Shown here: one piece after another, positions 8,990 through 26,480 of the stretch
Layout of the letters: each line of letters begins with the position of its first letter
Numbering within the stretch: the first letter of the stretch is position 1
Assembly: GCA_903896545.1 (NCBI GenBank)
Contig: CAITYF010000197.1
Coordinates: forward strand, 11,665 to 75,664
Reading direction: 5' to 3'
Length of the DNA: 64,000 nt
DNA from: an uncultured Myxococcales bacterium
GTDB taxonomy: Bacteria > Myxococcota_A > UBA9042
The notes under the pieces: model-generated
Seen by the model: the letters and a program-made list of their open reading frames with translations, nothing else
Told to the model about the DNA's origin: nothing
The model's database searches: none
Position numbers and translations under genes: made by a program

Positions 8990-9003
8990 GGTCGCGCTCC
9001 TCC

Positions 9004-10745: not shown

Positions 10746-11923
10746 CCCATGACCACGTAGAAAATGATGCTGAAGATGCTATCGGCGACGATGATGAAGA
10801 AGATCGCGCTGACGACGGACGCCGTGGTGGCCTTGCCGACTTCTTGCGCGCCGCCGCGGACGCCCATGCCGTGGTAGAGGCCGATGAGCGCGATGCCCCA
10901 GGCGAAGACGACGGACTTGAAGAGGCCGGTGACGAGGTCCTTGGTGACGAGCGCGTCGATCGTCTTTTGCAAGTAAGGCTTGGGCGCGATATCGAGGTAG
11001 ACCATGCCGACGATCCAGCCGCCGAGGATACCGAGCAAGTCCGCGAGCATCGTGAGCAGAGGGACCATCGTGACCATCGCGAGGACTTTGGGAACGGCGA
11101 CGAAATCGACAAACGGGATACCCATGACCTGCATGGCGTCGATTTCTTCGCCGACCTTCATGGTGGCGACTTCGGACGTTATCGACGAGCCAGAGCGACC
11201 TGCAACAAGGATGGCTGTGATGAGGGGGCCCATTTCACGGACCATCGAGATCGCGGTAAGTGACGCAACGTAGATGGCCGCGCCAAACTGGCGGAGTTGG
11301 TAGGCCGATTGAAAGGCCAACGTGAGACCGATGAGGAATGTGATGAGGCCGACGATGCCGAACGCCTGCGAGCCCATGAGGCTGGCTTCGCGAAAATAGG
11401 CCGACCAGCGCATGCGGCCGGGTGTGAAGAAGGACTGGATGCCGCCGATTGTGGTGTCGGCGGCGAGGACGATGAAGTCGCCGAGCGCGTGGATCGCGGA
11501 CCAGATCGTGTCGCCGAAGGATTCAAAGAAGCTGGGAAGAGCAACGGGCGGCGGCAGGTCGACCGTGACGCGGAATTCCTGAAGCCATTGGAGGACGCCG
11601 GGCTGGACTCCTTGGAGTTCGGTCGAGAAGCCGCGGGTCTTGCCCGTGCGCCAGAGGTCGACGAGCGTTGCAGTGCCGGCGCTGTCGATCGCGGTGAGGG
11701 CGGTCAAATCGAGGAGCAGCTTGCCGTCCTTGACGGGCAGACGCTTGCGGACCTGCGTGGCAAACGGGCCCGCGCCTTTGGCATCCAGAACGCCGGCAAG
11801 CACAAGCGCACGGGCGCGCGCGGTTGAATGCGGCGCCTCGGTCACGGTCAATGTCGCGTGCGGGTCGCGGGACGTCTGAACCTCCGTGCGGAGATGCCCG
11901 CCCCACAGGATAGGCGGAAGCAC
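10742..11923 (-). CDS. MlaE-like ABC permease with an N-terminal STAS (anti-sigma-antagonist-like) domain
   Basis: The N-terminal ~100 aa (LLLDLTALTAIDSAGTATLVDLWR) is STAS-like. The C-terminal part is a polytopic MlaE-type permease (IFFIIVADSIFSIIFYVVMG tail). The exact start codon is uncertain. Confidence 0.7.
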   Translation of the reverse strand: MLPPILWGGHLRTEVQTSRDPHATLTVTEAPHSTARARALVLAGVLDAKGAGPFATQVRKRLPVKDGKLLLDLTALTAIDSAGTATLVDLWRTGKTRGFSTELQGVQPGVLQWLQEFRVTVDLPPPVALPSFFESFGDTIWSAIHALGDFIVLAADTTIGGIQSFFTPGRMRWSAYFREASLMGSQAFGIVGLITFLIGLTLAFQSAYQLRQFGAAIYVASLTAISMVREMGPLITAILVAGRSGSSITSEVATMKVGEEIDAMQVMGIPFVDFVAVPKVLAMVTMVPLLTMLADLLGILGGWIVGMVYLDIAPKPYLQKTIDALVTKDLVTGLFKSVVFAWGIALIGLYHGMGVRGGAQEVGKATTASVVSAIFFIIVADSIFSIIFYVVMG

Positions 11924-11948
11924 GGGGATGACAAGAAGCTGCGCGCGG

Positions 11949-12515
11949 CTAAGGCTTCGCGCCGCCCGCGATCCAGTCGTGGACCGCTGTGAGTTGCTCG
12001 GCGGTCAGCGGGACAGCTGGCATCATCTCGAATTTGGCTGGCATGCGGTTGCCAGAACAGGGTGTGTCGGATGTGAGCTTGATCCACAGGTAGCTCTCGT
12101 CGGGCTTGCCGGGGACGACGAGCGTGCCGCCGCAGTACTCGGTGGAGGGCTTGCCGACCAGCGTCTTGAACGAGACGTCGCTGGTGAGCGGCAACGCGGC
12201 GTAGCCTGGGAGGCCAAGCGCTGTGACGGAATGGCAGTTGGTGCAGCGCGCATCAAAGACGGTCTGAACCGCAGCGAAAGGGGCCGCGGCAGACGTGTCC
12301 GCCGGAACCATGTCAGCGACGGCGGCGTCGGTCGTTGCGTCAGTGGAAAACACATCCACGGTGCCGGTGTCGGCGGGCGTGTCTGCCGAGGTAGCGTCCG
12401 TTGCGGCGGAATCATCGGTGGCGTCCCCGGTTCCGTCGCTTCCGGACGATGGTGTGCCACAGGAGAGCATCCCGAAGGTGAGAAGAGCAGTAAGCCACAC
12501 GCGGGTTGGTGTCAT
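11949..12515 (-). CDS. Lipoprotein with a single c-type heme-binding motif (CTNCHS) and an acidic low-complexity N-terminal region
   Basis: Lipobox MLSCGT, a D/T/A-rich linker, then FAAVQTVFDARCTNCHS (CxxCH). Confidence 0.55.
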   Translation of the reverse strand: MTPTRVWLTALLTFGMLSCGTPSSGSDGTGDATDDSAATDATSADTPADTGTVDVFSTDATTDAAVADMVPADTSAAAPFAAVQTVFDARCTNCHSVTALGLPGYAALPLTSDVSFKTLVGKPSTEYCGGTLVVPGKPDESYLWIKLTSDTPCSGNRMPAKFEMMPAVPLTAEQLTAVHDWIAGGAKP

Positions 12516-12572
12516 GTTGACCTCGGTTGGTGCACATCGCGGGGTTCATCGTGCGGGGCACGCAGCGGTCCG

Positions 12573-13090: not shown

Positions 13091-13109
13091 CAAAGCCTTA
13101 GGCATTGTC
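13091..13109. repeat. REP-like ~20-bp palindromic motif copy (CAAAGCCTTAGGCATTGTC)
   Basis: Same GCCTNAGGC-centred motif as at 13907-13929, 19931-19952, 22121-22139 and 25891-25910. Confidence 0.5.
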
Positions 13110-13243
13110 TACCGTCTGATTTTATGCGGTTTTGTGGTGCAAGTGCTCAGGATCTTCCGCCGCGCGGTCTCCATTCCCGCGGCAAAAGGCTTCAACCCAC
13201 GAATACCTCCTTAGGGCGCCACTTGTCCGCCCCCGGAGCTACC

Positions 13244-14311
13244 ATGACCGCAATTCGGCATTTCGACCCCGACCTACTTCACGAGGTTTCGCAGCGCGTC
13301 ATCGGTGGCGCGTTCTGTCTTGACCCGAACAACCTCGCACTTCGCGAGGCGTTTCTTGGCGCCCTGACGAAGTCGCTCCATCGATATGGCGTTCAGGTCC
13401 TCGCATTCCACTTCATGAGTAATCATTATCACGCGTTGTACAAGATTCCGTCCGCCGAAAAATTCTCCCGGTTTCTGGCGCATTTTCATTCTGGCCTTAC
13501 GGCGGCCTACCACCGAATCTGTCGGACTGATGGGAAGCTTTGGGGATATGCGAAATGGAATCCGGTCGCGAATGACGAAGCGTCGGTGTGTTTACGCCTG
13601 AAGTACATCATGGGGCAGGCTGTGGCAGCGGGGATTGTTGACCACCCAGCGCAATTTCCGGGCGCGTCGTCGGTCGATGCCATGCTTGGACTGTCCGCCT
13701 CGGTCGGTCGGGTATTCGATGCGACGCGCAAGTGTCGCGACAGGCGGAAGAAAAATGGTGCCGCGCCCGATTCGGAGTACGAGTCGGAGCATCTGCTCGT
13801 CGTGACGCCTCCCGACGCGTGGAGGCAGTGCAGTGTCGCCGAACGACTTCACCGGTATTGGAAGTTAGCCGACGAGGTGGCGCGAACGCCCTTGCATGGC
13901 GTGTGGAAAAGCCAAAGGCTTTGTCAACGCAATGAAAATACTAATGTACCTGTCCGCTCGCCTCTCGCCAAACGCGCCGTGCGAATGCGCCCGACATCCG
14001 ACGGCTCGCCCTTCCGCGCCGGTCCGGTAAAGCCAAAGCTCTTGGACATTCGACCGACTCGGCGCCCACGCGCGCCGCTCCTTCTCGCAGCGGACCGGGC
14101 AGTTGTTGCAGCGTACGCGCGCCGCTACGCCGATTTGGTTGTCGCCTACCGCGTCGCGAAGCGCGCTTGGCTCGCCCCGCCGCGGCCTGGCGGGCGTCCC
14201 CTCCTCCCGACGGCGCGTCCGTTACCCCTGCACACACTTGCCGGGACGCTCTCGTGCTCCCGTTCGGCGACAGTCTGCCGTCGGCGTGCAAGTCCGAACC
14301 ACTCGCAATGA
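13244..14311 (+). CDS. HUH / Y1 transposase-like protein (IS200-like / REP-associated tyrosine transposase family); the C-terminal third is of doubtful reality
   Basis: HUH motif VLAFHFMSNHYHALY, and a catalytic-Tyr region GKLWGYAKWNPVANDE resembling the RAYT GxxWQxRFYDH block. No in-frame stop until 14311, but the last ~130 codons are Arg/Pro-rich and include an AT-rich patch, so the true end, or a frameshift, is unresolved. Confidence 0.5.
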   Translation: MTAIRHFDPDLLHEVSQRVIGGAFCLDPNNLALREAFLGALTKSLHRYGVQVLAFHFMSNHYHALYKIPSAEKFSRFLAHFHSGLTAAYHRICRTDGKLWGYAKWNPVANDEASVCLRLKYIMGQAVAAGIVDHPAQFPGASSVDAMLGLSASVGRVFDATRKCRDRRKKNGAAPDSEYESEHLLVVTPPDAWRQCSVAERLHRYWKLADEVARTPLHGVWKSQRLCQRNENTNVPVRSPLAKRAVRMRPTSDGSPFRAGPVKPKLLDIRPTRRPRAPLLLAADRAVVAAYARRYADLVVAYRVAKRAWLAPPRPGGRPLLPTARPLPLHTLAGTLSCSRSATVCRRRASPNHSQ

Positions 14312-14417
14312 GAGGAAATTTTGCCGTTCTCGTAGACAACACAACCAGCGTGTGGCCCAATGCGTCGCGTTCCCCGTCCGGCACTTCCGGTCGCGTTTCT
14401 TCCGCCGCCGGAGCTTT

Positions 14418-15434
14418 ATGCGCTTTGAGAACGTTTCCATCTTGTCGCTCGCGCACGTCGATGCACCCCACCGTGTGACGTCGGCCGAGTTGTGCGAGCA
14501 GCTGTCGCCGGTGATGAACCGCCTCGGCTTGCGCCCAGATCTCCTCGCGGGCGCCAGCGGCATCATCGCCCGGCGCTACTGGGACACCGGGGTGCAGCCG
14601 AGCCAGGCCGCGACGTGGGCCGCTCAGGCCGCCATCGCCCAGGCGGGGATTGACCCTGCGAAGCTGGGCATCCTGATCTCGACCTCGGTGTGTCGCGATT
14701 TTATCGAGCCGTCCGTCGCCTGTCTGGTCCATGGCAATCTGGGGTTGCCGCCCGGTTGCATGAACTTCGACGTCGGCAACGCTTGCCTCGCGTTTCTCAA
14801 CGGTATGCAAATCGTTGCGAACATGATTGAGCGCGGCCAAATTGACTATGGACTGGTCGTTGACGGCGAAAGTGCTAGATTTGTTCAAGAAGCGACGATC
14901 GCGCGGCTCAACCGCCCTGAAACGACCGACGCCGAGTTCCGCGCGCAATTTGCGACGCTGACGCTTGGGTCGGGCGCCGCGGCCATGATTTTGGCGCGTC
15001 GCGACTTGGCCCCTGACGGCCACAAGTTCGTCGGCGCCGTAAGCCTTGCCGCGACCCAGCACAATCAGCTGTGCCGTGGGCAGGTCGACAAGATGGAAAC
15101 CGACGCCAAAACGCTGCTCTTCGCGGGGCTCGAACTTGCAGGGCGCGCCTGGGAATTGGCAAAGACAGAACTGGGCTGGGATGCCAAGATGATAGACGAG
15201 TTTGTCTTGCATCAGGTCAGCGGTACACACACCGCGTCGCTGACGCAGGCGCTGGGCCTGCCGATGGCGAAGGTCTTGGCGATCTACCCGGAATTCGGCA
15301 ACATCGGGCCGGCGGCGACGCCGATCGTGCTTTCAAAGGCGGTGGAGGCGGGCCGGGTGCGCAAGGGTTCACGCGTCGCGATGCTGGGTATCGGCAGCGG
15401 CCTCAACTGCAGCATGGCTGAGGTCGTGTGGTAG
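14418..15434 (+). CDS. oleA: OleA, FabH-like thiolase catalysing head-to-head Claisen condensation of acyl-CoAs (olefin biosynthesis)
   Basis: 338 aa. NVSILSLAHVDAPHRVTS, FDVGNACLAFLNGM and C-terminal GIGSGLNCSMAEVVW match OleA rather than canonical FabH. It is followed directly by oleBCD. Confidence 0.9.
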   Translation: MRFENVSILSLAHVDAPHRVTSAELCEQLSPVMNRLGLRPDLLAGASGIIARRYWDTGVQPSQAATWAAQAAIAQAGIDPAKLGILISTSVCRDFIEPSVACLVHGNLGLPPGCMNFDVGNACLAFLNGMQIVANMIERGQIDYGLVVDGESARFVQEATIARLNRPETTDAEFRAQFATLTLGSGAAAMILARRDLAPDGHKFVGAVSLAATQHNQLCRGQVDKMETDAKTLLFAGLELAGRAWELAKTELGWDAKMIDEFVLHQVSGTHTASLTQALGLPMAKVLAIYPEFGNIGPAATPIVLSKAVEAGRVRKGSRVAMLGIGSGLNCSMAEVVW

Positions 15435-16315
15435 CTTCGTTCGATCAACGTCTCTTCCCGTTTGAACGCAATTACTTCGACCGTGGCGACGGCGTGCGAA
15501 TGCACTACGTCGACGAGGGCCAAGGGCCGCCCGTCGTGTGCGTGCATGGCAACCCGACATGGAGCTTCTACTATCGGAACGTCGTGACTGCGTTGATGGC
15601 TGATCACCGAGTCATCGCGCCTGACCATGTCGGTATGGGGCTCTCCGACAAGCCGGGCGGCGATCGATACGGGTACGCGCTGAAAGATCGGGTCGATGAT
15701 TTTGAAAAGTTCATCAATTTCATGGATCTGACAAAGCCTTTGGCTTTGGTTGTCCACGATTGGGGCGGCATGATCGCCCTCGCCTGGGCCGTCCGTCACC
15801 CCTCCCGCGTTGCCAAACTCGTGATCCTCAACACTGCTGCGTTCCCGCTCCCCGAGGACAAGAAGTTCCCTTGGGCCCTCGCTTTGACGCGCACGCCGGT
15901 CGGTTCGCTTCTGGTTCGTGGCCTCAATGCGTTCTCGTGGACCGCGACCCGCGTTGCCATGACCCACAACGCCATGCCCGCCGAAGTCCGCCGCGCGTAC
16001 ACGGCCCCGTACGATTCCTGGGCCAACCGCATCGCGACCCTCCGTTTCGTGCAGGATATTCCGTTGCGCCTCGGCGCCCCCGGCTTCGATATCATCCAAG
16101 AGACCGCCGCGAATTTGCACAAGCTCGCAGCGGTGCCCATGCTCATCGGCTGGGGTGGTCGCGACTTCGTCTTCGACGATGCGTTCTTGCGGGTTTGGCA
16201 ACGCAATTTCCCCACCGCGGAAGTGCTCTATTTCGCTGACGCAGGGCACTACGTTCTGGAAGACGCCGCGCTGGAGCTCATCCCGCGCATCGCCGCGTTC
16301 ATTCGCAACGACTGA
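15428..16315 (+). CDS. oleB: OleB, alpha/beta-hydrolase (haloalkane-dehalogenase-like) beta-lactone decarboxylase
   Basis: VCVHGNPTWSFYYR, nucleophile elbow HDWGG, C-terminal His. Overlaps the oleA stop. Confidence 0.85.
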   Translation: MVASFDQRLFPFERNYFDRGDGVRMHYVDEGQGPPVVCVHGNPTWSFYYRNVVTALMADHRVIAPDHVGMGLSDKPGGDRYGYALKDRVDDFEKFINFMDLTKPLALVVHDWGGMIALAWAVRHPSRVAKLVILNTAAFPLPEDKKFPWALALTRTPVGSLLVRGLNAFSWTATRVAMTHNAMPAEVRRAYTAPYDSWANRIATLRFVQDIPLRLGAPGFDIIQETAANLHKLAAVPMLIGWGGRDFVFDDAFLRVWQRNFPTAEVLYFADAGHYVLEDAALELIPRIAAFIRND

Positions 16316-16321
16316 GGTCGC

Positions 16322-17968
16322 GTGGCTCCACTGGCCAACATCGCATCGTGTCTGCCCCAGATGGCGCGCGAACGTCCGCAGCAGGCGGCGATCGTGGAGA
16401 CCATCGGTCGCGACGCGGTCGGACGCCGTCAGTTCGCCTCGCTCACGTTCGCAGAACTCGACGCGCGCACCGACCAACTCGCCCGCGGATTCATCGGCAT
16501 CGGGATGCCGTCAGGCGCGCGCATCGTGGTCATGGTCAAGCCGAGCAGGGACTTTTTTGCCGTCATGTTCGCACTCTGGAAGGCGGGGCTCGTGCCGGTC
16601 CTGATCGACCCCGGTCTCGGTCGCCGCCAACTCAAGCACTGTCTGGCAGAAGTCGCCCCGGACGGATTTATTGGCATCTCCGCCGCCCACGCCGCGCGCG
16701 TCGTACTTGGCTGGGGGCGCCCCAGTGTCCGATTTTGCGTGACGCTCGGTCGTCGCTGGTTCTGGGGCGGTGTCACGCTCGACGACGTTCTTGTTCGCGG
16801 CCAAGGCTCGTCGCCCATGCTGGCACCGACGACTGCGACCGATCTCGCCGCGATTCTCTTCACCAGCGGCAGCACTGGTATTGCCAAAGGCGTCGAGTAC
16901 CAACACGGCCATTTCCTCGCGCAGGTCGATCTCATTCGCGACACTTATGGCATCCGTCCCGGCGAGATCGATTTACCCACGTTTCCGCCGTTCGCCCTAT
17001 TCGACGCAGCGCTGGGCATGACAACGATTCTCCCGGTTATGGATTTCACGCGGCCCGCCTCGGTCGATCCGCGGGAACTCGCTGAGCTCATCGCACACTT
17101 TCAAGTCACCAACGTCTTTGGCTCTCCTGCCTTGCTGGCGACCGTCAGCCGCAGCGCGCGCGGAAGTGGTGTGCATTGGTCGTCGGTCAGGCGCGTCATC
17201 AGCGCCGGCGCACCGGCATCGGTGCTGACTCTGGATCGGATGCGCGACTTGCTACCGCCCGAAGCGCAAGTATTCACGCCATACGGCGCGACCGAGTGCA
17301 TGCCGGTCAGCAACATTGGCAGTCAGGAAGTGTTGGCGGATACACAGGAAGCCACAGCACGCGGCGCGGGCGTTTGTGTCGGTCACGTCGTCGCCCCCAA
17401 CGACGTTCGGATCATCGCAATCACAGACAAGGCGATCGCGACGTGGTCAGAAGTGCTGCAAGTGTCGGTTGGTGAAATTGGCGAGATTTGCGTTCTGGGG
17501 CCGACGACGACGCGGGCGTATTTCGGTCGGCCAGAAGCGACAGCGCTGGCGAAAATCCGCGACGGCGAGCAGTTGTGGCATCGCATGGGAGACGTCGGCT
17601 ACTTCGACGCGCAAGGGCGTCTGTGGTACTGCGGGCGCAAGGCACACCGCGTGCAGCTGGCCGAGCGGGTGCTTCACACTGCGCCAGTTGAGGAAACGCT
17701 GAATACCCACCCGGCAGTTCGCCGCACGGCGCTTGTGCCGGTGACGATCGGCGGTTTCACGGAGCCGCTGATCTGCGTTGAAAGGGAGTCCGACGCGACG
17801 ATGCCGGACGCGCAGCTCCTCGGCGAGCTGTCGGCGTTGGCGCAGCAATTCCCCGCGACGCGCGGCATCACTCGGTTTCTGGTTCACCCGAAGTTTCCAG
17901 TGGATATTCGTCACAATGCCAAGATCGGTCGTGAAGTGTTGGCGACTTGGGCGCAGGAGCGCGTGTGA
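16322..17968 (+). CDS. oleC: OleC, AMP-dependent synthetase/ligase family (beta-lactone synthetase)
   Basis: AMP-binding motif FTSGSTGIAKGV, YGATE and the other adenylate-forming enzyme blocks. 548 aa. Confidence 0.85.
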   Translation: MAPLANIASCLPQMARERPQQAAIVETIGRDAVGRRQFASLTFAELDARTDQLARGFIGIGMPSGARIVVMVKPSRDFFAVMFALWKAGLVPVLIDPGLGRRQLKHCLAEVAPDGFIGISAAHAARVVLGWGRPSVRFCVTLGRRWFWGGVTLDDVLVRGQGSSPMLAPTTATDLAAILFTSGSTGIAKGVEYQHGHFLAQVDLIRDTYGIRPGEIDLPTFPPFALFDAALGMTTILPVMDFTRPASVDPRELAELIAHFQVTNVFGSPALLATVSRSARGSGVHWSSVRRVISAGAPASVLTLDRMRDLLPPEAQVFTPYGATECMPVSNIGSQEVLADTQEATARGAGVCVGHVVAPNDVRIIAITDKAIATWSEVLQVSVGEIGEICVLGPTTTRAYFGRPEATALAKIRDGEQLWHRMGDVGYFDAQGRLWYCGRKAHRVQLAERVLHTAPVEETLNTHPAVRRTALVPVTIGGFTEPLICVERESDATMPDAQLLGELSALAQQFPATRGITRFLVHPKFPVDIRHNAKIGREVLATWAQERV

Positions 17969-18945
17969 TTGTCGTGACCGGCGGCGGTGGTTTCTTGGGT
18001 GGCGCGGTTGTGCGCCAACTTGTCGAACGTGGCGATCGCGTGCGCAGCGTTCAACGCAGCGACGCGCCGGCGTTGCGCGCGTTGGGCGTTGAGGTCGTGC
18101 GCGCGGACTTGAGCGACGCGGATGCCTGTCTGGAGGCGCTTCGCGGTGCTGACGCGGTGATTCACGTCGCCGCAAAGGCCGGCGTTTGGGGCACGGAGGC
18201 CTCATTTTACGCGGCCAACGTGCAGGCGACGGACAACGTAGTCGCCGCGTGTCGCGCGCTGGGTGTGCGCAAGTTGGTCTACACTTCGACGCCTTCGGTC
18301 GTCCACACAGGCGGCGATGTCAATGGTGTGGACGAGTCCATGCCGGTCGCCACGCACTTCTCAGCCGCCTACCCGCGTACCAAAGCGATGGCTGAATCCC
18401 ACGTGCTCGCAGCGAACGACGCGCGACTGGCCACCGTCGCGCTGCGTCCGCACCTCATTTGGGGGCCGGGCGATACCCAGCTAACCGCACGGGTGTGGGC
18501 GCGCGCCCGTGCCGGTCGTTTGCGTCTGGTGGGCGGCGGTACGAAGTGGATCGACACCACCTTCGTGGAGAACGCCGCAGAGGCACACTTGAGCGCTCTC
18601 GACCGTCTCGCGCCCGATGCTGCCTGTGCAGGCAAAGCGTACTTCATCACGCAAGGCGAGCCGGTGCCGCAAAAGGCGTTCATCGACGGCATGCTTGCGG
18701 CCGGTGGCTTGCCACCCTGTGAAAAGTCGATCCCTCCGGCGCTCGCATGGCTCGTGGGGGCGATGCTGGAAGTCCTGTGGACCGTGCTGCGTCGTCAGGA
18801 TGAGCCGTTGATGACGCGCTTCTTGGCGGAACAACTCGCCACGGCGCACTGGTACAACATCGACGCCGCGCGTCGAGACTTGGGCTATGTGCCGCGCATT
18901 ACCGTGGCTGAGGGACTCCGCCGCTTGGCGGCCTCCCGGTCCTGA
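17947..18945 (+). CDS. oleD: OleD, NAD(P)H-dependent reductase of the 3-beta-HSD / extended SDR family
   Basis: VTGGGGFLGGAVVRQL Rossmann motif, YxxxK (YPRTKAMAE). The start overlaps the oleC 3' end. Confidence 0.8.
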   Translation: MGAGARVIVVTGGGGFLGGAVVRQLVERGDRVRSVQRSDAPALRALGVEVVRADLSDADACLEALRGADAVIHVAAKAGVWGTEASFYAANVQATDNVVAACRALGVRKLVYTSTPSVVHTGGDVNGVDESMPVATHFSAAYPRTKAMAESHVLAANDARLATVALRPHLIWGPGDTQLTARVWARARAGRLRLVGGGTKWIDTTFVENAAEAHLSALDRLAPDAACAGKAYFITQGEPVPQKAFIDGMLAAGGLPPCEKSIPPALAWLVGAMLEVLWTVLRRQDEPLMTRFLAEQLATAHWYNIDAARRDLGYVPRITVAEGLRRLAASRS

Positions 18946-18993
18946 CGGTTCGTCGTGCCGTCGCGGACGCAGATTCGGTGTCTGTTATCGCTG

Positions 18994-19815
18994 CTACGGA
19001 TCGACAAACAGGTCGATGATCGGCTCCCGTCCGGGCGTCACGTCGTACGGCGTGAAATCTGTCACCCCTTCGGCGCGAAGTACGTCTTCGTCGATGAAGA
19101 ACTGCCCAGTCGTCTCGCGGGAGTTGCGCGTCAAGATCGCGTACGCAGCGTCAGCCATGATGCTCGGTGTTCGGCCCCACTCGCCCAGCCCGGCGTTCGC
19201 AACCTGCAGCGCCGCCGTCGCAATGAGCGTTCGCGGCCAGAGCGCGTTCACGCCGACGCCGGCTTTTCGAAATTCCTCGGCCATCCCCATCGCCAACATG
19301 CTCATGCTGTACTTGGAAACTGTGTACGCCGGATGCTCGCCAAACCACTTTGGCGCCATGTTCAGCGGCGGCGACAGCACCAGAATGTGTGGATTTGCAG
19401 CACGTTGCAGGTGGGGAAGGCAAGTCTGTGAGCACAAGAACGTCCCGCGAACGTTGATGTCCATCATGAGGTCGTAGCGCTTCATCGGCGTTTCGAGCGT
19501 GCCCGTGATCGCGATCGCGCTGGCGTTGTTGACCAAAATGTCGATGCCGCCAAAGCGCGCGACGGCCGCTTCAACCGCGGACTGCACCGCAGCATCGTCC
19601 CGAATATCGACAAACAGCGGCAACGCGTGGCCGCCGACAGCCTCAATCTCGGCCGCCGCAGTGAAAATGGTGCCCGGCAGGCGCGGGTTGGTTTCTGTCG
19701 TCTTGGCTGCAATGACGATGTTGGCACCGTCGCGCGCGGCGCGCAGCGCGATTTCTTTGCCGATTCCGCGACTTGCGCCGGAGATGAAGAGGGTCTTGCC
19801 CGCCAGATTGCCCAT
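18994..19815 (-). CDS. SDR family oxidoreductase (HSDL2 / citronellol-dehydrogenase-like)
   Basis: TLFISGASRGIGKEIA, NNAS, YTVSKYSMS (YxxxK). Start taken at MGNLAGK. Confidence 0.8.
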   Translation of the reverse strand: MGNLAGKTLFISGASRGIGKEIALRAARDGANIVIAAKTTETNPRLPGTIFTAAAEIEAVGGHALPLFVDIRDDAAVQSAVEAAVARFGGIDILVNNASAIAITGTLETPMKRYDLMMDINVRGTFLCSQTCLPHLQRAANPHILVLSPPLNMAPKWFGEHPAYTVSKYSMSMLAMGMAEEFRKAGVGVNALWPRTLIATAALQVANAGLGEWGRTPSIMADAAYAILTRNSRETTGQFFIDEDVLRAEGVTDFTPYDVTPGREPIIDLFVDP

Positions 19816-19930
19816 GTCTCGCCTCGCCAGTTGCCGCGCGTTTGGCGCCGACCGTGACTCTGCGCTGGCCCGTGGCCTTTGGTCAAGGGCTAGCGATGTC
19901 TCGCTCGGATTCATGTGTAATATCATGAAG

Positions 19931-19952
19931 TAGACAGAGCCTTAGGCTATTG
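19931..19952. repeat. REP-like palindromic motif copy (GACAGAGCCTTAGGCTATTG)
   Basis: Near-palindrome centred on GCCTTAGGC, lying ~30 nt upstream of conserved leader 1. Confidence 0.5.
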
Positions 19953-19980
19953 CGCACCAACGCGTATAGTACAAACACAC

Positions 19981-20082
19981 CACCCCAAATTGGTGCCACC
20001 GACCCTGCATTTTGGCCAATCGTGCCAATATCGCCCACCGCCATTGGCGCGTACCTTGTGTATCAGGAAGTCCGCTGGACGC
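19981..20082 (+). promoter_or_regulatory. Conserved ~100-nt 5' leader/promoter module of small gene 1 (candidate sigma-54-like element TGGCGCGTACCTTGTG)
   Basis: Near-identical blocks shared with 22234-22335: CACCCCAAATTGGTG (15/15) and TTGGCGCGTA(C/T)CTTGTGTATCAGGAAGTCCGCTGGACGC (39/40). GGAGG lies 6 nt before the ATG. Confidence 0.5.
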
Positions 20083-20134
20083 AGCCACCAACGGGCAGCA
20101 GAACCCACGCGGCAGAAACACTCGGAGGCACATC

Positions 20135-20404
20135 ATGGACACGCACTTCACCAGCCAACTCTTCCTCAGCATCCTCTTCTTCGCGCCGGGCATGGTCCTC
20201 TTCGCGGGCGTCGCGTTTGTCGGTGGTTTGATGCTGCTCGAAAAGGCCTTCGACCACACCGATACGGAACTCGGGTTGGTCGTGCCTCAAGGCGCTGTCG
20301 ACTTCGCCGCGACGGGCAATCCCGGTCCAGGTCGAATCGTCAACGCGCTGAAGACCAGCATGAACCAGACGGACAAAAAGCCGCAGCGCAAGGTCCATAA
20401 CTAG
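20135..20404 (+). CDS. Small protein P1 (89 aa), paralogue of P2; N-terminal hydrophobic segment and a basic C-terminal tail
   Basis: MDTHFTSQLFLSILFFAPGMVLFAGVAFVGGLMLLEK...NPGPGRIVNALK...KKPQRKVHN. It has its own RBS and a U-tract terminator. Confidence 0.7.
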   Translation: MDTHFTSQLFLSILFFAPGMVLFAGVAFVGGLMLLEKAFDHTDTELGLVVPQGAVDFAATGNPGPGRIVNALKTSMNQTDKKPQRKVHN

Positions 20405-20422
20405 CCCGCGCGGTATCTGCTT

Positions 20423-20467
20423 GCAGGCAGCCGCGCACTTCTCCGCGGGTGCCTGCGGCTTTTTTTG
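20423..20467 (+). terminator. Rho-independent terminator after P1
   Basis: GCAGGCAGCCGCG / CGCGGGTGCCTGC stem (12 of 13 bp paired), 8-nt loop, then GGC and a T7 tract. Confidence 0.7.
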
Positions 20468-20857
20468 GCGACAGTTGCTCAGCCCACTGACCAGCCCGCC
20501 GGTTGTCGTCGGCAGGTACGGCGAAAGGTTCGACTGCGGCGCCTACCAGTTCAGTCCCACGTGGAGGTCGGCGCGCGAAGGGTCGGGTTTTCCAACTGCG
20601 CGAGCCATCTGCCCACGCTCCACTGTCGCGAAGCCTTGGCATCGGCCTCCCCCCGTCCGGGTTCGTCGATGAGCGCGACGATGCTCAAGATTCACGTTTC
20701 GCATCACTCCCCTCGATGCGAGGCATATGCGTAGAGCGCTTTTGCTGGCTCTAACCTCTTATGTTTACATGCTATTGTGTGATTTGACGCGTCCAGCCCT
20801 CCGGTTCACACTGGGCGCCAAGTCCCGTGCGATGCCCGTGACGATGCTGGAGAGTCA

Positions 20858-22087
20858 ATGAGCGGCAAGATCGCAGCAGTTGCGCGCCCTGATGGTTTCG
20901 CGCGGACAAAAACGCTGCATGTGCGTACGGGCTACGTGTGCCAAAACGACTGCCTCTTCTGCTGCGATGGCGGCGGTGGTGTACACGGAACAGCGCAGGA
21001 GTCGCCGTTCGTCCGCCAGATGCTGGAAAAGAACGTGGGCTTGGGGTGTGTCGAGTTTACTGCTCACGAACCCACGCTGAATCCCAACTTGCCGCAGTGG
21101 GCGACCTGGGCGCGCGAATTGGGCTACCCGATCGTGTCTGTCGTGACCAATGGCCGGCTGTTGCGCCGCGGCGACCTTTTGCAGCGCCTTCTGGACGCCG
21201 GCATCAACCGCATTCAAATCTCGTTGCACGGGCATTACGCTGGGTTGCACGACCAGATGACGCAGCGCCTCGGCAGTTTTGACGACACTGTGGCGGGAAT
21301 CCGCGCAGTCGTGGCCGCGCGCCTCGATCGCCCCGGATTGACGTTGCACGTGCACACAACAGTGACACAGCACAATGTGCACGAGCTGAGCAACATCATT
21401 CCCTATGTGCTCGCGTCCAAACCGGACACGTACGGGCTCAACTGCGTGTTTTTGACCGCGTCGGCGGAGCACAACATCGGTGAAACGGCGGTCAGCTATG
21501 CGGAGATCGTGGCAGAACTGCTGCGGTGCCTGCCGTCGACGCGTCGTGACCCGATCTTCGTCAGTGAGATCCCAATTTGTCAGGTTGTGGGCAAACTGGC
21601 GCCGGACTATTTTGGCCTGCGGGAAGGCTTTCACCTGTCGCAGGACGCCGATGCCACGGCGCAAGCCGTTGGGCGAGGCTTTGATTTTGGTCCACGCTGC
21701 GGTGAATGTGCGCTGCGCAACGCGTGTGACGGCGTACCACCGGCGTACGTGGCGCGGTTTGGATGGGACGCGTTTCAACCGGTGACGCAGGAAAGTTTGG
21801 CACGTGCGACGGACGACACGCGCCGCGACTTGCGCCATTTGCTGGCCGCACCAGCGGGCGAGTGGACCATCGTTGGATTGGAGCCGCGCGACGGGTACAC
21901 AACAGTCCGTTTGCAAAGTGCTAAGCTTATTCGGGATTTGTCGGTGCAGGTTCGCCCGCGCGACGACGCGTTCCCCGCCTTCGCGCGGACGGAGACGCTG
22001 AACATCACGCTCGCCGGTCCGTACCAAAGCAAGGACGAGATTTTGCTCGCGCGCAAGCTGCTCGACGTGGTGCGTTCGCGGGAGTAG
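20858..22087 (+). CDS. Radical SAM enzyme with a C-terminal twitch / partial-SPASM-like Cys cluster and a ~110-aa C-terminal extension
   Basis: CQNDCLFC (Cx3Cx2C) at residues ~28-35, a TIM-barrel-like core, a later CGECALRNAC (Cx2Cx5C), plus upstream Cys at RCLP and IPIC. Confidence 0.8.
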   Translation: MSGKIAAVARPDGFARTKTLHVRTGYVCQNDCLFCCDGGGGVHGTAQESPFVRQMLEKNVGLGCVEFTAHEPTLNPNLPQWATWARELGYPIVSVVTNGRLLRRGDLLQRLLDAGINRIQISLHGHYAGLHDQMTQRLGSFDDTVAGIRAVVAARLDRPGLTLHVHTTVTQHNVHELSNIIPYVLASKPDTYGLNCVFLTASAEHNIGETAVSYAEIVAELLRCLPSTRRDPIFVSEIPICQVVGKLAPDYFGLREGFHLSQDADATAQAVGRGFDFGPRCGECALRNACDGVPPAYVARFGWDAFQPVTQESLARATDDTRRDLRHLLAAPAGEWTIVGLEPRDGYTTVRLQSAKLIRDLSVQVRPRDDAFPAFARTETLNITLAGPYQSKDEILLARKLLDVVRSRE

Positions 22088-22120
22088 GGCCGTCAATTCG
22101 CCTCAAACGGGTGGCGCGTA

Positions 22121-22139
22121 CATTGCCTAAGGCTTTGTC
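22121..22139. repeat. REP-like palindromic motif copy (CATTGCCTAAGGCTTTGTC)
   Basis: Same motif family, located between the rSAM stop and leader 2. Confidence 0.5.
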
Positions 22140-22233
22140 AGTGCGTTGATCGTAAACACATTTGCACCCATCCGCCGCCTCGCCACGTCCCGCCATGGTG
22201 CATTCGCACCATACGCGTTTGATGCCATCCCCC

Positions 22234-22335
22234 CACCCCAAATTGGTGTCGAAATCCCTACAGATTGGCCATGACGACCACTATTGCCCTGCGGTCTTGG
22301 CGCGTATCTTGTGTATCAGGAAGTCCGCTGGACGC
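22234..22335 (+). promoter_or_regulatory. Conserved 5' leader/promoter module of small gene 2 (paralogue of 19981-20082)
   Basis: Same conserved blocks and the same ~53-nt spacing to the ATG, with a GGAGG RBS. Confidence 0.5.
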
Positions 22336-22388
22336 CGCCGGGAAGCGGCGGCAAGCCCAAGCGGCAAGAAACCCTCTGGAGGCTCATC

Positions 22389-22658
22389 ATGGAAACCAAC
22401 TACACCACTCAACTCGCTCTCAGCATCCTCTTCTTCGCCCCTGGCATCATCCTCTTCGCTGGCTTGGCCTTCGTCGGTGTGCTGATGATTCTGGAAAAGA
22501 CCGTCTTCCAGGCGCAGGCGACGAACGTGCTGACGAACGGTGGCTTGCACATCGAACTGCCCGCGAACGCGAACCCGGCGCCGGGTGCCATCGTCACGGC
22601 GCTCAAGGATGCGCAACAGCCGGTCGAGCAGAAGAAACAGCGCAAAGCGCATCAATAA
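22389..22658 (+). CDS. Small protein P2 (89 aa), paralogue of P1
   Basis: METNYTTQLALSILFFAPGIILFAGLAFVGVLMILEK...NPAPGAIVTALK...QKKQRKAHQ. Identical in length to P1, with conserved N- and C-terminal thirds and a divergent middle. Confidence 0.7.
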   Translation: METNYTTQLALSILFFAPGIILFAGLAFVGVLMILEKTVFQAQATNVLTNGGLHIELPANANPAPGAIVTALKDAQQPVEQKKQRKAHQ

Positions 22659-22679
22659 CAAGTGATTTGTCGCCATACA

Positions 22680-22724
22680 CAGGCCGTCGCGTCTCCTCCG
22701 CGGCGGCCTGTCGCGTTTTTTTTT
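22680..22724 (+). terminator. Rho-independent terminator after P2
   Basis: CAGGCCGTCGCG / CGCGGCGGCCTG stem (11 of 12 bp paired), 7-nt loop, T9 tract. Confidence 0.7.
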
Positions 22725-22728
22725 GCCG

Positions 22729-23712
22729 TCAATTCGGCTCGATTCCGCGCGCTGCGTTGACCTGCGTGCGGGCCACCAGCGCGTTGTCCAGATTGTAGGT
22801 CATGATGACGTCAAAGCCCGCGTCCCAGAGCGCCACGTGGTCGGCGGGCGTCGGCAGGTGAATGGAGGACACGAAGCCGCGCAGCCCCGCGGGATGAATC
22901 TTCTTGCTGAGCAGATCCGCCATCTTCGCGTTCGCTGCTTCCTGATAGTCTACGCCGATCTCCAAGAACGCCACAACTGGCTTCGCGCTGGATTGCAGCA
23001 CGGCGTCCAACTCGGCCTCCGACGACACCGACGCGTTGTACCAAGTCTTTTGCCAGTCCGCCGACTTCGGCACCGCGGTCTGCAGGTCGCCCAAGCCTGT
23101 CTCCAGAAAGACGTAGTCCAGCGCGTTGTGCTCGATCACCGTCTGAATTGCGCGCGGAAAGTCCACCGGTTCCTTGACGGTCAGCATGATGACGACCTTG
23201 CCGCGCGCCCACTCCAGCACTGTATCCAGCCGCTGGAACGTCTGCGTGTCTGACGGGAAAATGTGGCATTTGGTCACTTGGTCGGCAGTCGAATCTTCCA
23301 CGACAAGTCCCGCGCAATCGGTCGTCTCGTAGCCCAAGAGCGGGCTCGAATGCGTCACGACGGCGACGTTGTCTTTGGTCACGTGGACGTCCGTCTTGAT
23401 GCCGTCGGCGCCTTTGTCGGCCGCTCGATGGAATGCGCCCTCCGAGTCGTACGGAAAGTCTTCGATACTCCAGTCGCCGCCGTGGCTGATGACGAACGCG
23501 CGCTTGCAGTTCAAGTCGTTCCAGCAGACTTTGAGCGAGTCGCGCCATGTGGGTCCGGTCGTCGTCGTTGTGTCGCTTGCAGTGTCCACGCTCGTCGTTG
23601 TGTCCGCCGTCGCATCGGCGTTCGCCATTGTGTCGGTTGACGTCGCGGTTGGCCCCGTGCCGCACGCAGCGAGCGCAAACGAGGTTGCAAAGGCAAGGTT
23701 TTGGAAGTTCAT
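22729..23712 (-). CDS. Glycerophosphodiester phosphodiesterase (GDPD) family lipoprotein
   Basis: Lipobox FALAACGT, a Thr/Asp-rich linker, then VISHGGDWSIEDFPYDSEGAFHRAADKGADGIKTDVHVTKDN (GDPD-type His/Glu/Asp motifs). Confidence 0.65.
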   Translation of the reverse strand: MNFQNLAFATSFALAACGTGPTATSTDTMANADATADTTTSVDTASDTTTTTGPTWRDSLKVCWNDLNCKRAFVISHGGDWSIEDFPYDSEGAFHRAADKGADGIKTDVHVTKDNVAVVTHSSPLLGYETTDCAGLVVEDSTADQVTKCHIFPSDTQTFQRLDTVLEWARGKVVIMLTVKEPVDFPRAIQTVIEHNALDYVFLETGLGDLQTAVPKSADWQKTWYNASVSSEAELDAVLQSSAKPVVAFLEIGVDYQEAANAKMADLLSKKIHPAGLRGFVSSIHLPTPADHVALWDAGFDVIMTYNLDNALVARTQVNAARGIEPN

Positions 23713-24053
23713 GCGAATCTCTCGGCGCAGACATCGGTCTGTCACCGAAGCGTAGAATTCCCGTCATCAAAAGGCTACTGCAGGGTCGACCGCGTCATCT
23801 TCATCAGGGCGTGGAACGCGATGGCGTGCCCTCACTTGACGCCGTGATCGTGTGCCGGGAACCGAGTGCCGTGGTGGGGCTGCTGCCCTCGACGCCAAGA
23901 ATTCCAAGCGGTGGTCGCGCTCGTCGCGCGCGAACTCGCTCGTGGCCGGGCAAGCCCCGCGATGCCGACATCTGGCGTGTGACGGGAATTTGACCGTGTC
24001 ATGACAAAACAACGACGATTGTGCTGCGGCGGAGGGCTGCGGAGGCACCAGGC

Positions 24054-24938
24054 ATGGCGCGAAAGACCGTTTGGTTGGGACTTGCAGTGGCGCTGCTGGG
24101 ATGTACGACGACAGCGTCAAAGGCGGCTGTACCACCGGAACCATGCAACGGCGCGGTGGAACTGTGCGAACGGCGCTTGAACGAGGTCGCACTGGCAGGC
24201 GCGCACAACGCGATGTCCAACTTGGATGAAGGCTGGAACTTCGCCAATCAACAGCATGGACTCTTGACGCAGCTGGACGACGGTATCCGCGCATTCCTCA
24301 TTGACGCACACCCGGCTGACGAGAACACGCCGGATCAGCCGGCGGGCAAGGCGATGCTCTGCCACGGTCTCTGCCAACTTGGCTACGAGCCGCTGGACGC
24401 TGCGCTTACCAAGATGAAGAAGTGGCTCGACGCGCATCCGCGCGAAGTGATTGTGTTTGTCATTGAGGACTACGTCTCGGAACAGGCGATCACAGACGCG
24501 CTCACGTCGTCCGGTCTGCTGGCGCTGTGTCTGCACCAGCCGCGCGACCAGCCGTTCCCGACGCTGCAGGCGCTGATCGACGCCAACACGCGCGTGTTCA
24601 TCATGCTGGAGTCGGGCGGCGGGCCTGCCCCGTGGCATCACGGGTACCAGGACTACGCCCAGGACAATCCGTATTCGGCTGAAAAAGTCGCGGATTTTTC
24701 GTGCGATCGGCTGCGCGGCAAGGCGGGCAATCCGCTGTTGCTGATCAACCATTTTCTGACCGCGGGGCTGACCGGGCACGAAGAACTCGCCACGCAGGCG
24801 AACGCTGAGCCCGGACTAAGCGCGCACGTGCAGCAATGTCAGAAACAGTTTGGTCAACTCCCCAACATCGTTGCGCTGGACTGGTACCACGTGGGCGGGC
24901 TGATGCCACTGGTGCGTAAGCTGAACGGCTTGCCGTAG
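24054..24938 (+). CDS. PI-PLC X-domain-like phosphodiesterase lipoprotein
   Basis: Lipobox LLGCTT. LAGAHNAMSN and FLIDAH match the PLC-like phosphodiesterase X-box catalytic histidines. Confidence 0.6.
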   Translation: MARKTVWLGLAVALLGCTTTASKAAVPPEPCNGAVELCERRLNEVALAGAHNAMSNLDEGWNFANQQHGLLTQLDDGIRAFLIDAHPADENTPDQPAGKAMLCHGLCQLGYEPLDAALTKMKKWLDAHPREVIVFVIEDYVSEQAITDALTSSGLLALCLHQPRDQPFPTLQALIDANTRVFIMLESGGGPAPWHHGYQDYAQDNPYSAEKVADFSCDRLRGKAGNPLLLINHFLTAGLTGHEELATQANAEPGLSAHVQQCQKQFGQLPNIVALDWYHVGGLMPLVRKLNGLP

Positions 24939-24953
24939 CGTCCGACGGCGATC

Positions 24954-26480
24954 TTGACCAGAGCGTTGCCGCAACGCACTCTGGGCCTGCAATCGGGACG
25001 CTTCCGCCCCGCGCACGGGATCATGGCCGCTAGCACGCCCTTGCCGTTGCACGATTCACGCGACCGTTGGCCGTTGTGGCTGTTCTGCTTGTTGGCGGCA
25101 CCGCTTCTTGTCAACCGGTTGGGACCAGAATTTCTGGACGCGGACACGCTGCTTTCGTCGCTCATGTCGACGCAAAAGGTCACGCTTTTCTACTGGGGGC
25201 AGGAACGCTTGGCCAACGTGCTGCCGTTTATGCTCGCGCCCGTCACCGATCTGGCGCGGAATCAATGGCTGCAGATGACGGCGAACGCCGCGGCGTACCT
25301 GCTGCTTTTGGAAGCGCTGACGCACGTGGCGTGCCAACTGGACGACGCGCCGCCGCCCCGGCTGTACCGACACGTCCTGTTCGCGCTACTCGTGGCGCTG
25401 CCATTCCTCTTCCTTCGGCCTTTTGCGTTGTACCAATTCACGGTCGCGGCTCAGCCCTATTCGCTGTCCTTTCTGTGTCTGACGTGGGCTGCGCTGGCGT
25501 GGCGTCGCCGCGTCGAACAGCCGCTGTTCTGGGTCGCCTGCGGGCCCGCACTTGTCGTGGCCGTCGGGCTCAATCCCGCCGTCTTGCTTCTTGTCGTCGC
25601 GCTTGTCGCGTGGCAGCACCGGGCGGGAAAAGGCCGCGGTTGGATCGGGTTCTTCGTGCTCACGCTGAGCATTTTTGTTGTCTGGACGTTCTTGTCGGTG
25701 ACCTACCCGCTGCGCTCGCCGGCGTCATTCATGACGTTCGCGCCTCAAGGCGTTCCCGCCGCGCTGCGGGCGTCGGCGGGCGAGATCGCCCACGAAGCGC
25801 TGCGTCTGCGGGTCGTGGCGCTTGGCGGTATCGCGGTGACCGTCGCGTGGCCGCAATTGGGGCTGCAGCAGCGCCGGGCAACCCTTTCTGCAATAGCCTT
25901 AGGCTTTGTCTGGTCGTTGTTTTTCTTGACGAATCTCTGGGTTCAACGCAACTCAGCCGCCTTCCGCTACTTCATGCCGCTCATCTTCGCCCCCGTGGTT
26001 TGCACGGCTCTCGCGCTCGCCCACCTGTGCTTTCAGCGGCGCACCGTGTGGCGCGCGCGAGTCGTCCTTCTCGCCTCCACCCTCGTTTTCGCGGGCTTCT
26101 GCGTACGACCCTGGACGCCGCTCGCCTCGTACCACCTCTTCCGGCCCGCCCGCACACCGTTGGCGACGGCGCAACGCCATCAGATCCGCTACTTCGCGGG
26201 TGACTACTGGACCGTCTGGCCCGTAATTTTCCAACTTCGTCTGCAAGGCCATGACGCTCTCGGCGCGTTTTCGCGCGGGATCGCGATGCAAGCGGAGATC
26301 ATGGCTGCGCTTCACAAGGACCAAATCGTGCAGCCACGGACGCTGGCGCAGTGCATCAGTAAGCCGCTGCCGACCTGTCAGGAGCAGCTCGAGAAGGTGA
26401 CGCGGACGTCCTGGCGTCTGGCCGATGTGCCGCCGGAAGGTGAAAGCATCTTTCTGACCCCGGCCACGCCTCCGCTCTAA
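24954..26480 (+). CDS. Polytopic integral membrane protein (more than 10 predicted TM segments; possibly GT-C-like glycosyltransferase fold)
   Basis: Long hydrophobic stretches throughout. The exact start is uncertain (alternative M at ~25023). The stop codon TAA coincides with the end of the 144-bp repeat. Confidence 0.6.
   Translation: MTRALPQRTLGLQSGRFRPAHGIMAASTPLPLHDSRDRWPLWLFCLLAAPLLVNRLGPEFLDADTLLSSLMSTQKVTLFYWGQERLANVLPFMLAPVTDLARNQWLQMTANAAAYLLLLEALTHVACQLDDAPPPRLYRHVLFALLVALPFLFLRPFALYQFTVAAQPYSLSFLCLTWAALAWRRRVEQPLFWVACGPALVVAVGLNPAVLLLVVALVAWQHRAGKGRGWIGFFVLTLSIFVVWTFLSVTYPLRSPASFMTFAPQGVPAALRASAGEIAHEALRLRVVALGGIAVTVAWPQLGLQQRRATLSAIALGFVWSLFFLTNLWVQRNSAAFRYFMPLIFAPVVCTALALAHLCFQRRTVWRARVVLLASTLVFAGFCVRPWTPLASYHLFRPARTPLATAQRHQIRYFAGDYWTVWPVIFQLRLQGHDALGAFSRGIAMQAEIMAALHKDQIVQPRTLAQCISKPLPTCQEQLEKVTRTSWRLADVPPEGESIFLTPATPPL
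25891..25910. repeat. REP-like palindromic motif copy (CAATAGCCTTAGGCTTTGTC) inside the coding sequence
   Basis: 20-nt match to the motif family, lying within the membrane-protein ORF (it encodes SAIALGFV). Confidence 0.4.

Follow-up and report, generated by a model that had tools for sequence, protein, structure and literature searches.

The 64-kb window analysed here, a 64,000-nt stretch of contig CAITYF010000197.1 (GCA_903896545.1) from an uncultured Myxococcales bacterium, carries a gene for a HUH/Y1 tyrosine-transposase-like protein together with seven copies of a short palindromic repeat, most of them as part of a module of about 45 nt. We favour, with moderate confidence, the reading in which the adjacent HUH/Y1 enzyme has the module as its cognate DNA partner, and in which the two form a unit resembling a REPtron, the association of repetitive extragenic palindromes (REPs) with a REP-associated tyrosine transposase (RAYT, or TnpA_REP; class 2 of TnpA_Y1). 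The unit would represent a divergent, Myxococcota-restricted branch of the TnpA_Y1 (IS200/RAYT) enzymes, with a mechanism that we propose by analogy. We take this view because module variants follow the lineages of the HUH paralogues at fixed positions, with the symmetry of the palindrome kept by compensatory changes.

A search of the window with the 15-mer GCCTWAGGCTTTGTC, allowing one mismatch, returns seven sites (7299+, 13095+, 13911+, 15730-, 19933-, 22125+ and 25896+), against about 0.01 expected by chance on our own estimate. With up to three mismatches there are 13 matches, compared with 1.46 +/- 1.25 in shuffled sequences, and the core GCCTNAGGC occurs five times where shuffles predict 1.08; its match at 57502 is an unrelated chance match and was not among the sites of an earlier reading of this DNA made from the letters only (the sequence-only reading). 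That reading had listed five occurrences and considered their recurrence to be beyond chance. Both statements hold, with all five copies present where it placed them, but it missed those at 7299 and 15730, and the opposite orientation of the copy at 19931 went unremarked. Full modules of about 45 nt are found in 6 of the 7 copies; in nhmmer searches of the window, a 45-nt profile that includes the window seeds gives them E-values between 7e-8 and 4e-5 and also recovers the seventh copy, at 7298, as a palindrome only. With a profile built from other genomes only, the top window matches are 15743-15705 (E 0.0013) and 13096-13133 (E 0.064). Every copy falls in 19 kb (7.3-25.9 kb), which has P ~2e-4 under uniform placement, and the solo copies lie within about 13 kb of the HUH gene. 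Pattern and nhmmer scans found no copy in the remaining 45 kb of the window. An Rfam search of 6-28 kb, with E up to 1, gave no match. An exact scan of viral contigs with the 15-mer produced at least 50 single matches, which were judged to be chance, and such scans give no per-genome counts.

The HUH gene (13244..14311, + strand) encodes a protein of 355 aa. One module (13091..13133, +) is located 149-153 nt 5' of its ATG, between the HUH gene and a divergent 149-aa gene. A second (13907..13949, +), carrying GCCAAAGGC, has the same orientation and lies inside the gene, at codons 223-228 of the linker, where it encodes KSQRLCQRNENTN and where the TGT of TGTC is a Cys codon. The sequence-only reading had these two copies bracket the gene; this is right for the upstream one, while the other is not a downstream flank but an intragenic copy, found at the same linker position and in the same codon frame in relatives. 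The module with the top window score (15705..15748, -; nhmmer 28.5 bits) is antisense in an OleB-like alpha/beta-hydrolase gene. Two modules are intergenic: that at 19909..19951 (-) lies between a short-chain dehydrogenase/reductase (SDR) gene on the - strand and a small gene on the + strand (small gene 1), faces the SDR gene and overlaps its first ATG, and that at 22121..22164 (+) lies 3' of a radical-SAM gene, about 50 nt 5' of the conserved leader of small gene 2. Both had been described as standing in front of the leaders of the two small genes, which is correct for their position but not for the orientation of the copy near small gene 1, which points to the SDR gene. The module at 25892..25935 (+) is in sense orientation in a gene for a 508-aa membrane protein, as had been noticed before, and encodes IALGFVWSLFFLTNLW. 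The seventh copy (7294..7314, +) consists only of the palindrome, GCCGTAGGCTTTGTC, and is antisense in the ABC_trans_aux lipoprotein gene of an Mla-like cluster. Coding sequence thus holds 4 of the 7 copies (HUH linker, hydrolase, ABC_trans_aux gene and 508-aa membrane protein), and the repeat is not extragenic.

Each module is composed of an imperfect palindrome, about 7 nt of spacer, a wTGAw box and an AT-rich tail. The palindrome has 9-bp arms and the consensus GACAAAGCC-nnn-GGCTTTGTC, with the outer GACA arm degenerate in most window copies, and when the copies are oriented alike each one precedes an AT-rich stretch of about 30 nt, in a window with a GC content of 63.7%. Conservation is higher in the right arm TGTC and the wTGAw box than in the left arm. 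Across 26 modules, pairing extends to 82.5% of the palindrome cells, compared with 72% for shuffled sequences and 31-47% for slid controls, and compensatory double changes are seen at three inner pairs of the palindrome. Among the cells of the same modules that are not Watson-Crick pairs, G.T (24) exceeds A.C (9); this excess would fit a hairpin formed by one strand, but it is only suggestive, as the sequences are related. Perfect palindromes were found only in L053 and L090 among the surroundings of paralogues in other genomes (loci of other genomes are cited here by L numbers and proteins by P numbers), the others being imperfect. There is no GT[AG]G foot in the modules, GTAG being found only in the centre of some palindromes. 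A CnGA foot is present in 11 of the 26 modules of related genomes and in none of the six of the window.

The sequence-only reading considered the long HUH open reading frame (ORF) to be a read-through or frameshift artefact. We found instead that the ORF is genuine, because homologues span it and share its C-terminal domain, and because the true start of the neighbouring KASIII/oleA-like gene, at about 14418, follows the HUH stop. Sixteen database homologues, with 36-52% identity, cover 70-99% of the ORF (94-99% for most); 14 of them have 329-421 aa and one is a 612-aa fusion. In the protein, a catalytic N-terminal domain (about 215 aa) is connected through a disordered and variable linker to a helix domain that is conserved at the C-terminus; after the linker the homologues share the segment PVKPK...RxPxLLAAD...Y...AK..W...LP..LLGTLP. 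The AlphaFold2 model agrees with this division: residues 1-215 have a predicted confidence (pLDDT) above 90, the linker at 218-273 is disordered and a helix follows at the C-terminus. H61, Y62 and Y121 do not vary among the 16 homologues and H63 hardly does, which gives the HuH motif NHYH. The Y motif, YIMGQ (Y121-I-M-G-Q125-A), is of the Y---Q and not of the Y---NP type, and is invariant in the family.

Profile searches place this protein only distantly among known families. Pfam Y1_Tnp gives a weak match (19 bits against a cut-off of 23), and no other Pfam match was found in any of the 16 members, Bac_DnaA_C, HTH_23 and HTH_28 included. The NCBIfam model REP_Tyr_transpos (NF047646) scores 38 bits against a cut-off of 80 for the window protein and matches 16 of 16 family members, always below threshold (best E 1.2e-12). 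A family profile had no match among PDB sequences at E up to 1, whereas with Foldseek the best PDB match of the model is 4ER8, the E. coli TnpA_REP with a REP hairpin (E 3e-6), followed by the IS200, IS608 and ISDra2 TnpA proteins. Judged by sequence and predicted fold, the HUH protein is a very divergent Y1 HUH enzyme, closest to RAYTs, with its catalytic residues kept. It also evolves much faster than its neighbours: between the window and the contig of P0003 and P0018, from another species, the HUH proteins are 51% identical and the adjacent hydrolases 82%.

A scan of species-representative genomes, a collection that leaves out the source genome, revealed 55 HUH loci, all in metagenome-assembled genomes (MAGs) assigned to Myxococcota, 'Deltaproteobacteria' or 'Proteobacteria' and for the most part obtained from lakes and groundwater. 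Searched with the family profile, a library of 1.84 billion representatives yields 98 clusters at E<=1e-30 and 889 at E<=1e-10. The MAG CAIXGW contains at least 10 paralogues and JACRCU at least 7, while JACKDP has at least 13 more distant relatives with 26-32% identity. Paralogues of the same MAG share 67-85% identity inside subgroups and 33-47% between them; going by their sequences, they are old and not recent copies of an insertion sequence (IS). HUH genes are also found at orthologous positions in different species, with 51-63% identity, beside oleA in the window and at P0003, and after an ALGX gene in L052 and L053.

Nearly every paralogue has its own lineage-specific version of the module upstream, in one to three direct copies. 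The upstream module stands at about -150 in the window, L052 and L053, and at -179 and -365 in L001, L060 and L061, with a third copy in L062. A further module is found inside the gene, in the linker, at +655 to +800; it occupies the same place and frame in L001, L052, L053, L060, L061, L062, L065 and L066, and its frame always puts a Cys at the TGT of TGTC. The linker cannot otherwise be aligned, and the conserved Cys is there because the intragenic module keeps TGT in frame. The linker of P0003 contains SLRLCQ, exactly as AGCCTTAGGCTTTGTCAA is translated, and that of P0004 contains SLRLCH. An inverted copy lies 0-100 nt 3' of the stop codon in L001, L054, L055, L061, L062, L072-L074, L076, L079, L082, L084, L088 and L089, and farther 3' in L059 and L078. 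The arrangement of a gene with its cognate repeat recurs in this way in dozens of paralogues.

Some of these traits would suit a present or recent autonomous element of the IS200/IS605 type, made of the HUH gene and its flanking modules, with the solo copies as remnants of its ends. The family occurs in several copies per genome, inverted modules enclose many paralogues in the manner of terminal repeats, a different gene occupies the syntenic position in a related genome, and the motif YIMGQ is of the Y---Q type of IS200 class 1 and not of the Y---NP type of RAYTs (PMC6006769, Table 1). However, the copies within a genome are 67-85% identical at best, compared with about 99% for IS200 (PMC6006769), and HUH genes that share their position across species are only 51-63% identical. 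The protein has two to three times the length of TnpA_IS200, with a conserved extra domain, and there is no tnpB-like ORF among the neighbours. The modules at 13091 and 13907 cannot be the ends of an element because one of them lies inside the gene, and no inverted end comes after the window gene. We consider an autonomous IS very unlikely.

The comparison with relatives devoid of the HUH gene ties the modules to this gene more closely. The syntenic relative L110/L111 shares the whole neighbourhood, with the Mla-like genes, a 148-aa gene, and the KASIII-like, hydrolase, AMP-ligase and reductase genes, with an unrelated 186-aa gene at the position of the HUH gene, and no module was found anywhere in it. 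Neither the HUH gene nor modules were found in the more distant operons L107 and L108. The peptide FINFMGLTKPLAL, encoded by the module in the hydrolase gene, is kept only in the orthologue P0018, on the contig where it stands beside the HUH homologue P0003, while hydrolase orthologues of about 80% identity from HUH-less loci read FIDSLRLNEPLTL. The absence of solo copies from the HUH-less relatives and the retention of the peptide beside P0003 indicate that the presence of modules tracks the presence of the HUH gene. A motif independent of the HUH gene, either an architectural or uptake-type sequence spread over the genome or the site of an unrelated regulator, frequent here by accident, would account for copies in coding and non-coding DNA and on both strands, as known from uptake and architecture sequences. 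It would not account for the empty 45 kb of the window, for the lack of modules in the syntenic HUH-less relative, or for homologous modules standing at fixed positions around the HUH paralogues of other genomes and varying by paralogue lineage, and we regard it as highly improbable.

The copies inside intact genes other than the HUH gene leave no trace of an insertion. The hydrolase gene of L110 has the same length as that of the window (888 nt) and 75% nucleotide identity to it overall, but only 58% in the 45-nt patch of the module, where GC is 0.33 in the window and 0.58 in L110; there is no indel in the window hydrolase when compared with its PDB homologues and 14 orthologues. The copy at 7299 differs from an 84%-identical L110 orthologue by substitutions only. 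The segment at 25892 aligns without gaps to homologues, and part of its T-rich tail is the conserved WLFFLxNRW motif. Since length does not change in any of these three host genes, the copies were not made by simple insertion; they were either selected in situ from partly similar sequence or produced by short-patch conversion. A bolder proposal is that the HUH enzyme, or its single-stranded products, spreads the module by overwriting partly similar sequence, free of indels and even in conserved coding regions, which we think unlikely. If true, such overwriting would be a mode of repeat spread distinct from those of REPINs (pairs of inverted REPs), miniature inverted-repeat transposable elements (MITEs) and IS elements, and it would reveal local editing of host genes by a domesticated Y1 transposase.

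Several observations weigh against the module being the cognate partner of the HUH enzyme. Folding as single-stranded DNA gives z-scores from +1.1 to -3.3 and is weak in about half of the copies: the predicted hairpin is strong in some copies, such as that of L053 (-11.2 kcal/mol, z -3.3), and negligible in others, with z from +1.1 to -0.8 for those of 13091, 19951, 22121, L001 and L061. No inverted module was found 3' of the window HUH stop by alignment or nhmmer, only an 8-nt match to TTGTCTAC. The copies are pairwise only 48-69% identical, and this divergence, together with their confinement to 19 kb around the gene, gives no sign of a recent or genome-wide proliferation. The intragenic copies arose without indels, unlike inserted REPs or MITEs. 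The parts conserved in the solo copies of the window are the right arm TGTC and the tail, with a degenerate left arm, and this pattern would also fit an asymmetric binding site in double-stranded DNA. As for recent copying, the 'sibling pairs' 13907/15748 and 19951/25892 were considered and set aside as weak, with an identity of 0.76-0.80 in the palindrome and 0.62-0.67 over 48 nt.

Alternatively, the module may have a regulatory role as double-stranded DNA, serving either as the operator of a dimeric regulator (possibly the domesticated HUH protein itself) or as an unusual promoter; it would then control the HUH gene and the neighbouring lipid/olefin and small-membrane-protein genes. The higher conservation of the right half-site TGTC, the wTGAw box and the AT-rich tail is in agreement with it, and so are the origin of the intragenic copies by substitution, as expected of sites selected in place, and the HUH genes at orthologous positions across species, which would fit a host function. 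A single 19-kb block of genes related to the envelope and to lipids contains all seven copies, four or five of which face a downstream gene start (HUH, oleA-like, SDR and small gene 2), and the module keeps a fixed distance to the HUH ATG; on the other hand, the copies 15748 and 7294 are antisense in genes, and the solo copies of L069, L060 and L052 are 3' of genes or antisense. A scan of 7-26.5 kb for sigma-70 promoters and terminators found no promoter-like site at any module, the terminators found being those of the small genes, and the spacing from TTGTCW to the AT-rich box is too short for a -35/-10 pair. Sites of the sigma-54, extracytoplasmic-function sigma factor (ECF), CRP/FNR and MrpC types were compared by eye, with the help of consensus sequences, and the spacing fits none of them. 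Moreover, paralogues that are 30-50% identical still have the HUH and Tyr catalytic residues, for which a protein acting purely as a DNA-binding regulator would have no need, and the same module family stands beside HUH paralogues in unrelated gene neighbourhoods. A regulatory site thus seems possible but doubtful to us.

Returning to the module as partner of the HUH enzyme, we propose a mechanism by analogy with E. coli TnpA_REP, IS608 and ISDra2. While the DNA is transiently single-stranded, the palindrome would form a hairpin on the top strand and be recognised in this form by the HUH protein. In a genome of 64% GC, the AT-rich tail would ease melting and contain the cleavage site, possibly the conserved wTGAw located 7-8 nt 3' of the hairpin. 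The wTGAw box resembles the TTGAT site of ISDra2 in its position and, loosely, in its sequence. Binding, nicking and rejoining at the module would then drive the spread and maintenance of the copies.

With REPtrons, the locus shares the Y1 HUH fold with its His-u-His and Tyr residues and 4ER8 as the best structural match, a cognate short palindrome beside the gene with more copies nearby, a repeat variant that co-varies with the protein lineage, and mostly vertical inheritance at fixed loci. The proposal of a REP/RAYT system made in the sequence-only reading therefore stands in part, for a palindromic repeat tied to a HUH gene whose product has 4ER8 as its best fold match, and fails for the GT[AG]G foot and the Y---NP motif. 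RAYTs have Y---NP (PMC6006769, Table 1) where these proteins have Y---Q, and the NCBIfam score here is far below the cut-off; the proteins are also longer (320-430 aa), with an extra conserved C-terminal domain. RAYTs occur in about one copy per genome (Bertels et al. 2017, PMC5581495), whereas the related MAGs have many diverged paralogues, the window holding one copy. REPs are extragenic, whereas 4 of the 7 copies here are intragenic and all are clustered locally in the 64-kb window, with no sign of a high copy number, no GT[AG]G foot, weak hairpins and a conserved AT-rich tail. As for the inverted pairs of repeats around a REPtron gene, the window HUH gene has one direct copy upstream and one inside, while many paralogues pair a direct upstream copy with an inverted one 0-100 nt past the stop.

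Other TnpA_Y1 groups resemble the family in part. Class 3 is intermediate between IS and REPtron and is known from Planctomycetes, Acidobacteria and Proteobacteria (Quentin et al. 2018, PMC6006769); its proteins have about 178 aa, NHVH and Y----Q, with atypical weak flanking hairpins that have a CnGA foot (PMC6006769). The HUH family shares with it an N-H-u-H type of HuH motif, a Y motif ending in Q and the CnGA foot of 11 of the 26 modules from related genomes. Compared by description only, it differs from class 3 in its length of about 355 aa, in NHYH and Y---Q, in the C-terminal domain and in window modules without a CnGA foot. In subclass 2.4, REPs occur in frame inside tnpA_REP genes (PMC6006769), and REPs inside other genes, as well as TIRtrons, have been described (Di Nocera et al. 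2013, PMC3733652). An in-frame cognate repeat in a surface or linker region of its own gene, with further copies in unrelated intact genes, is common to subclass 2.4 and to this family, but here the linker copy comes after the catalytic domain, at one position across paralogue lineages, and the copies in host genes replace sequence without added length. Subclass 2.3, from Chromatiales and Alteromonadales, resembles the family in its NHYH motif, its length of about 325 aa, its long C-terminal tail and the presence of several copies per genome that have moderately diverged, and differs in its YVDLNP motif, the lack of associated repeats and the taxonomic range. TIRtrons likewise have genes bounded by terminal inverted repeats that can form small repeat families, while the TIRYTs (subclass 2.1) have DnaA_C or HTH-like C-terminal domains and GGGGWSAS repeats, neither of which was found here. 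The IS200/IS605 elements IS608 and ISDra2 share the fold and Y---Q and recognise subterminal hairpins with cleavage several nt away, but IS200/IS605 proteins have about 150 aa, with near-identical mobile copies and often tnpB, whereas the proteins here are long, diverged, positionally stable and without tnpB. The HUH family does not conform to the definition of any one of these Y1/repeat systems. In the literature compared, we did not find its combination of features, namely a linker copy conserved from one paralogue lineage to the next, a tail rich in A and T, solo copies that are strictly local, and host-gene copies free of indels, and a literature search for RAYT and Myxococcus returned nothing relevant.

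Further elements are seen around the HUH genes. A second conserved upstream element of the window (13176..13207, +), about 40-70 nt 5' of the HUH ATG, consists of CCGCGG, a run of A or T and a GAATAC/GATCAC-like box. Read by eye from the upstream sequences, this CCGCGG element, with its GATCAC/GATAAC/GAATAC-like box, precedes nearly all HUH paralogues of L001-L089, about 40-90 nt 5' of the ATG and whatever the module type; it may be a promoter or an element of the 5' untranslated region of the family. A TTTTCGC box often occurs 5' of it and could pair with it. Iteron-like short tandem repeats of the left-arm sequence are found directly 5' of the module in L061 (9590-9640), L086 (7180-7215), L083 (9560-9640) and L090 (9790-9900). 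In L061 the unit GGGCA(A/G)(C/T)CCCGT is repeated four times, and in L090 there is a long inverted repeat made of CGCACGGGTGTC units. These repeats recall the Rep-binding iterons beside nick-site hairpins. In L052 (9995-11935; P0002), the HUH ORF continues in frame into a HlyIII/PAQR-family membrane protein, giving a total of 612-647 aa. The HlyIII gene of L053 stands apart, 3.4 kb downstream, and a HlyIII-like gene is present in the window at about 3.5-4.2 kb; the fusion could be real or an assembly or frameshift artefact. The 149-aa gene beside the window HUH gene is not homologous to the 149-aa gene beside the HUH gene of L001, and the idea of a conserved partner was rejected.

Four genes follow the HUH gene on the same strand (14418-18945, +), encoding a KASIII/thiolase-like protein, a haloalkane-dehalogenase-like alpha/beta hydrolase, an AMP-dependent ligase and a 3-beta-HSD-family reductase. 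They look like an oleABCD operon for a long-chain olefin or beta-lactone pathway, and a homologue of the hydrolase is named cis-3-alkyl-4-acyloxetan-2-one decarboxylase (OleB) by JGI. The oleABCD-like operon is kept without the HUH gene in L107, L108 and L110. On the other side, an Mla-like lipid-transport cluster (6761-12545, -) comprises MlaE with an N-terminal STAS domain, an ABC ATPase, MlaD and an ABC_trans_aux lipoprotein of 742-759 aa, followed by a cytochrome-c-like protein of 188 aa; weak PSCyt1 matches were obtained, which taken alone pointed to a planctomycete, but the related loci are all from Myxococcota. The two small genes (19960-20404 and 22213-22658, +) encode paralogous single-pass membrane proteins of 89 aa, beginning with MDTHFTSQL and METNYTTQL. 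Their leaders, of 175-250 nt, are 71-78% identical and have no Rfam match, and a strong terminator-like hairpin is present 3' of each gene (20443 and 22679). They flank the radical-SAM gene (20858-22087), whose best match is HxsC4 with 174 bits against a cut-off of 500. Two 89-aa genes are present in the related genome as well, where DUF1501/PSCyt genes separate them.

RAYT/REP systems are widespread, and their function and mechanism are unsettled. To these the locus adds a lineage from uncultured freshwater Myxococcota, in which the HUH gene has given rise to numerous diverged paralogues that each come with a cognate module of their own. It also corrects a likely mis-annotation, the long HUH ORF being real and free of a frameshift. 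The contrast between a locus with solo copies and a syntenic relative lacking the HUH gene is rare and offers a tractable test of whether such enzymes act on the DNA near their own gene. The same contrast bears on whether these repeats are selfish, regulatory or both.

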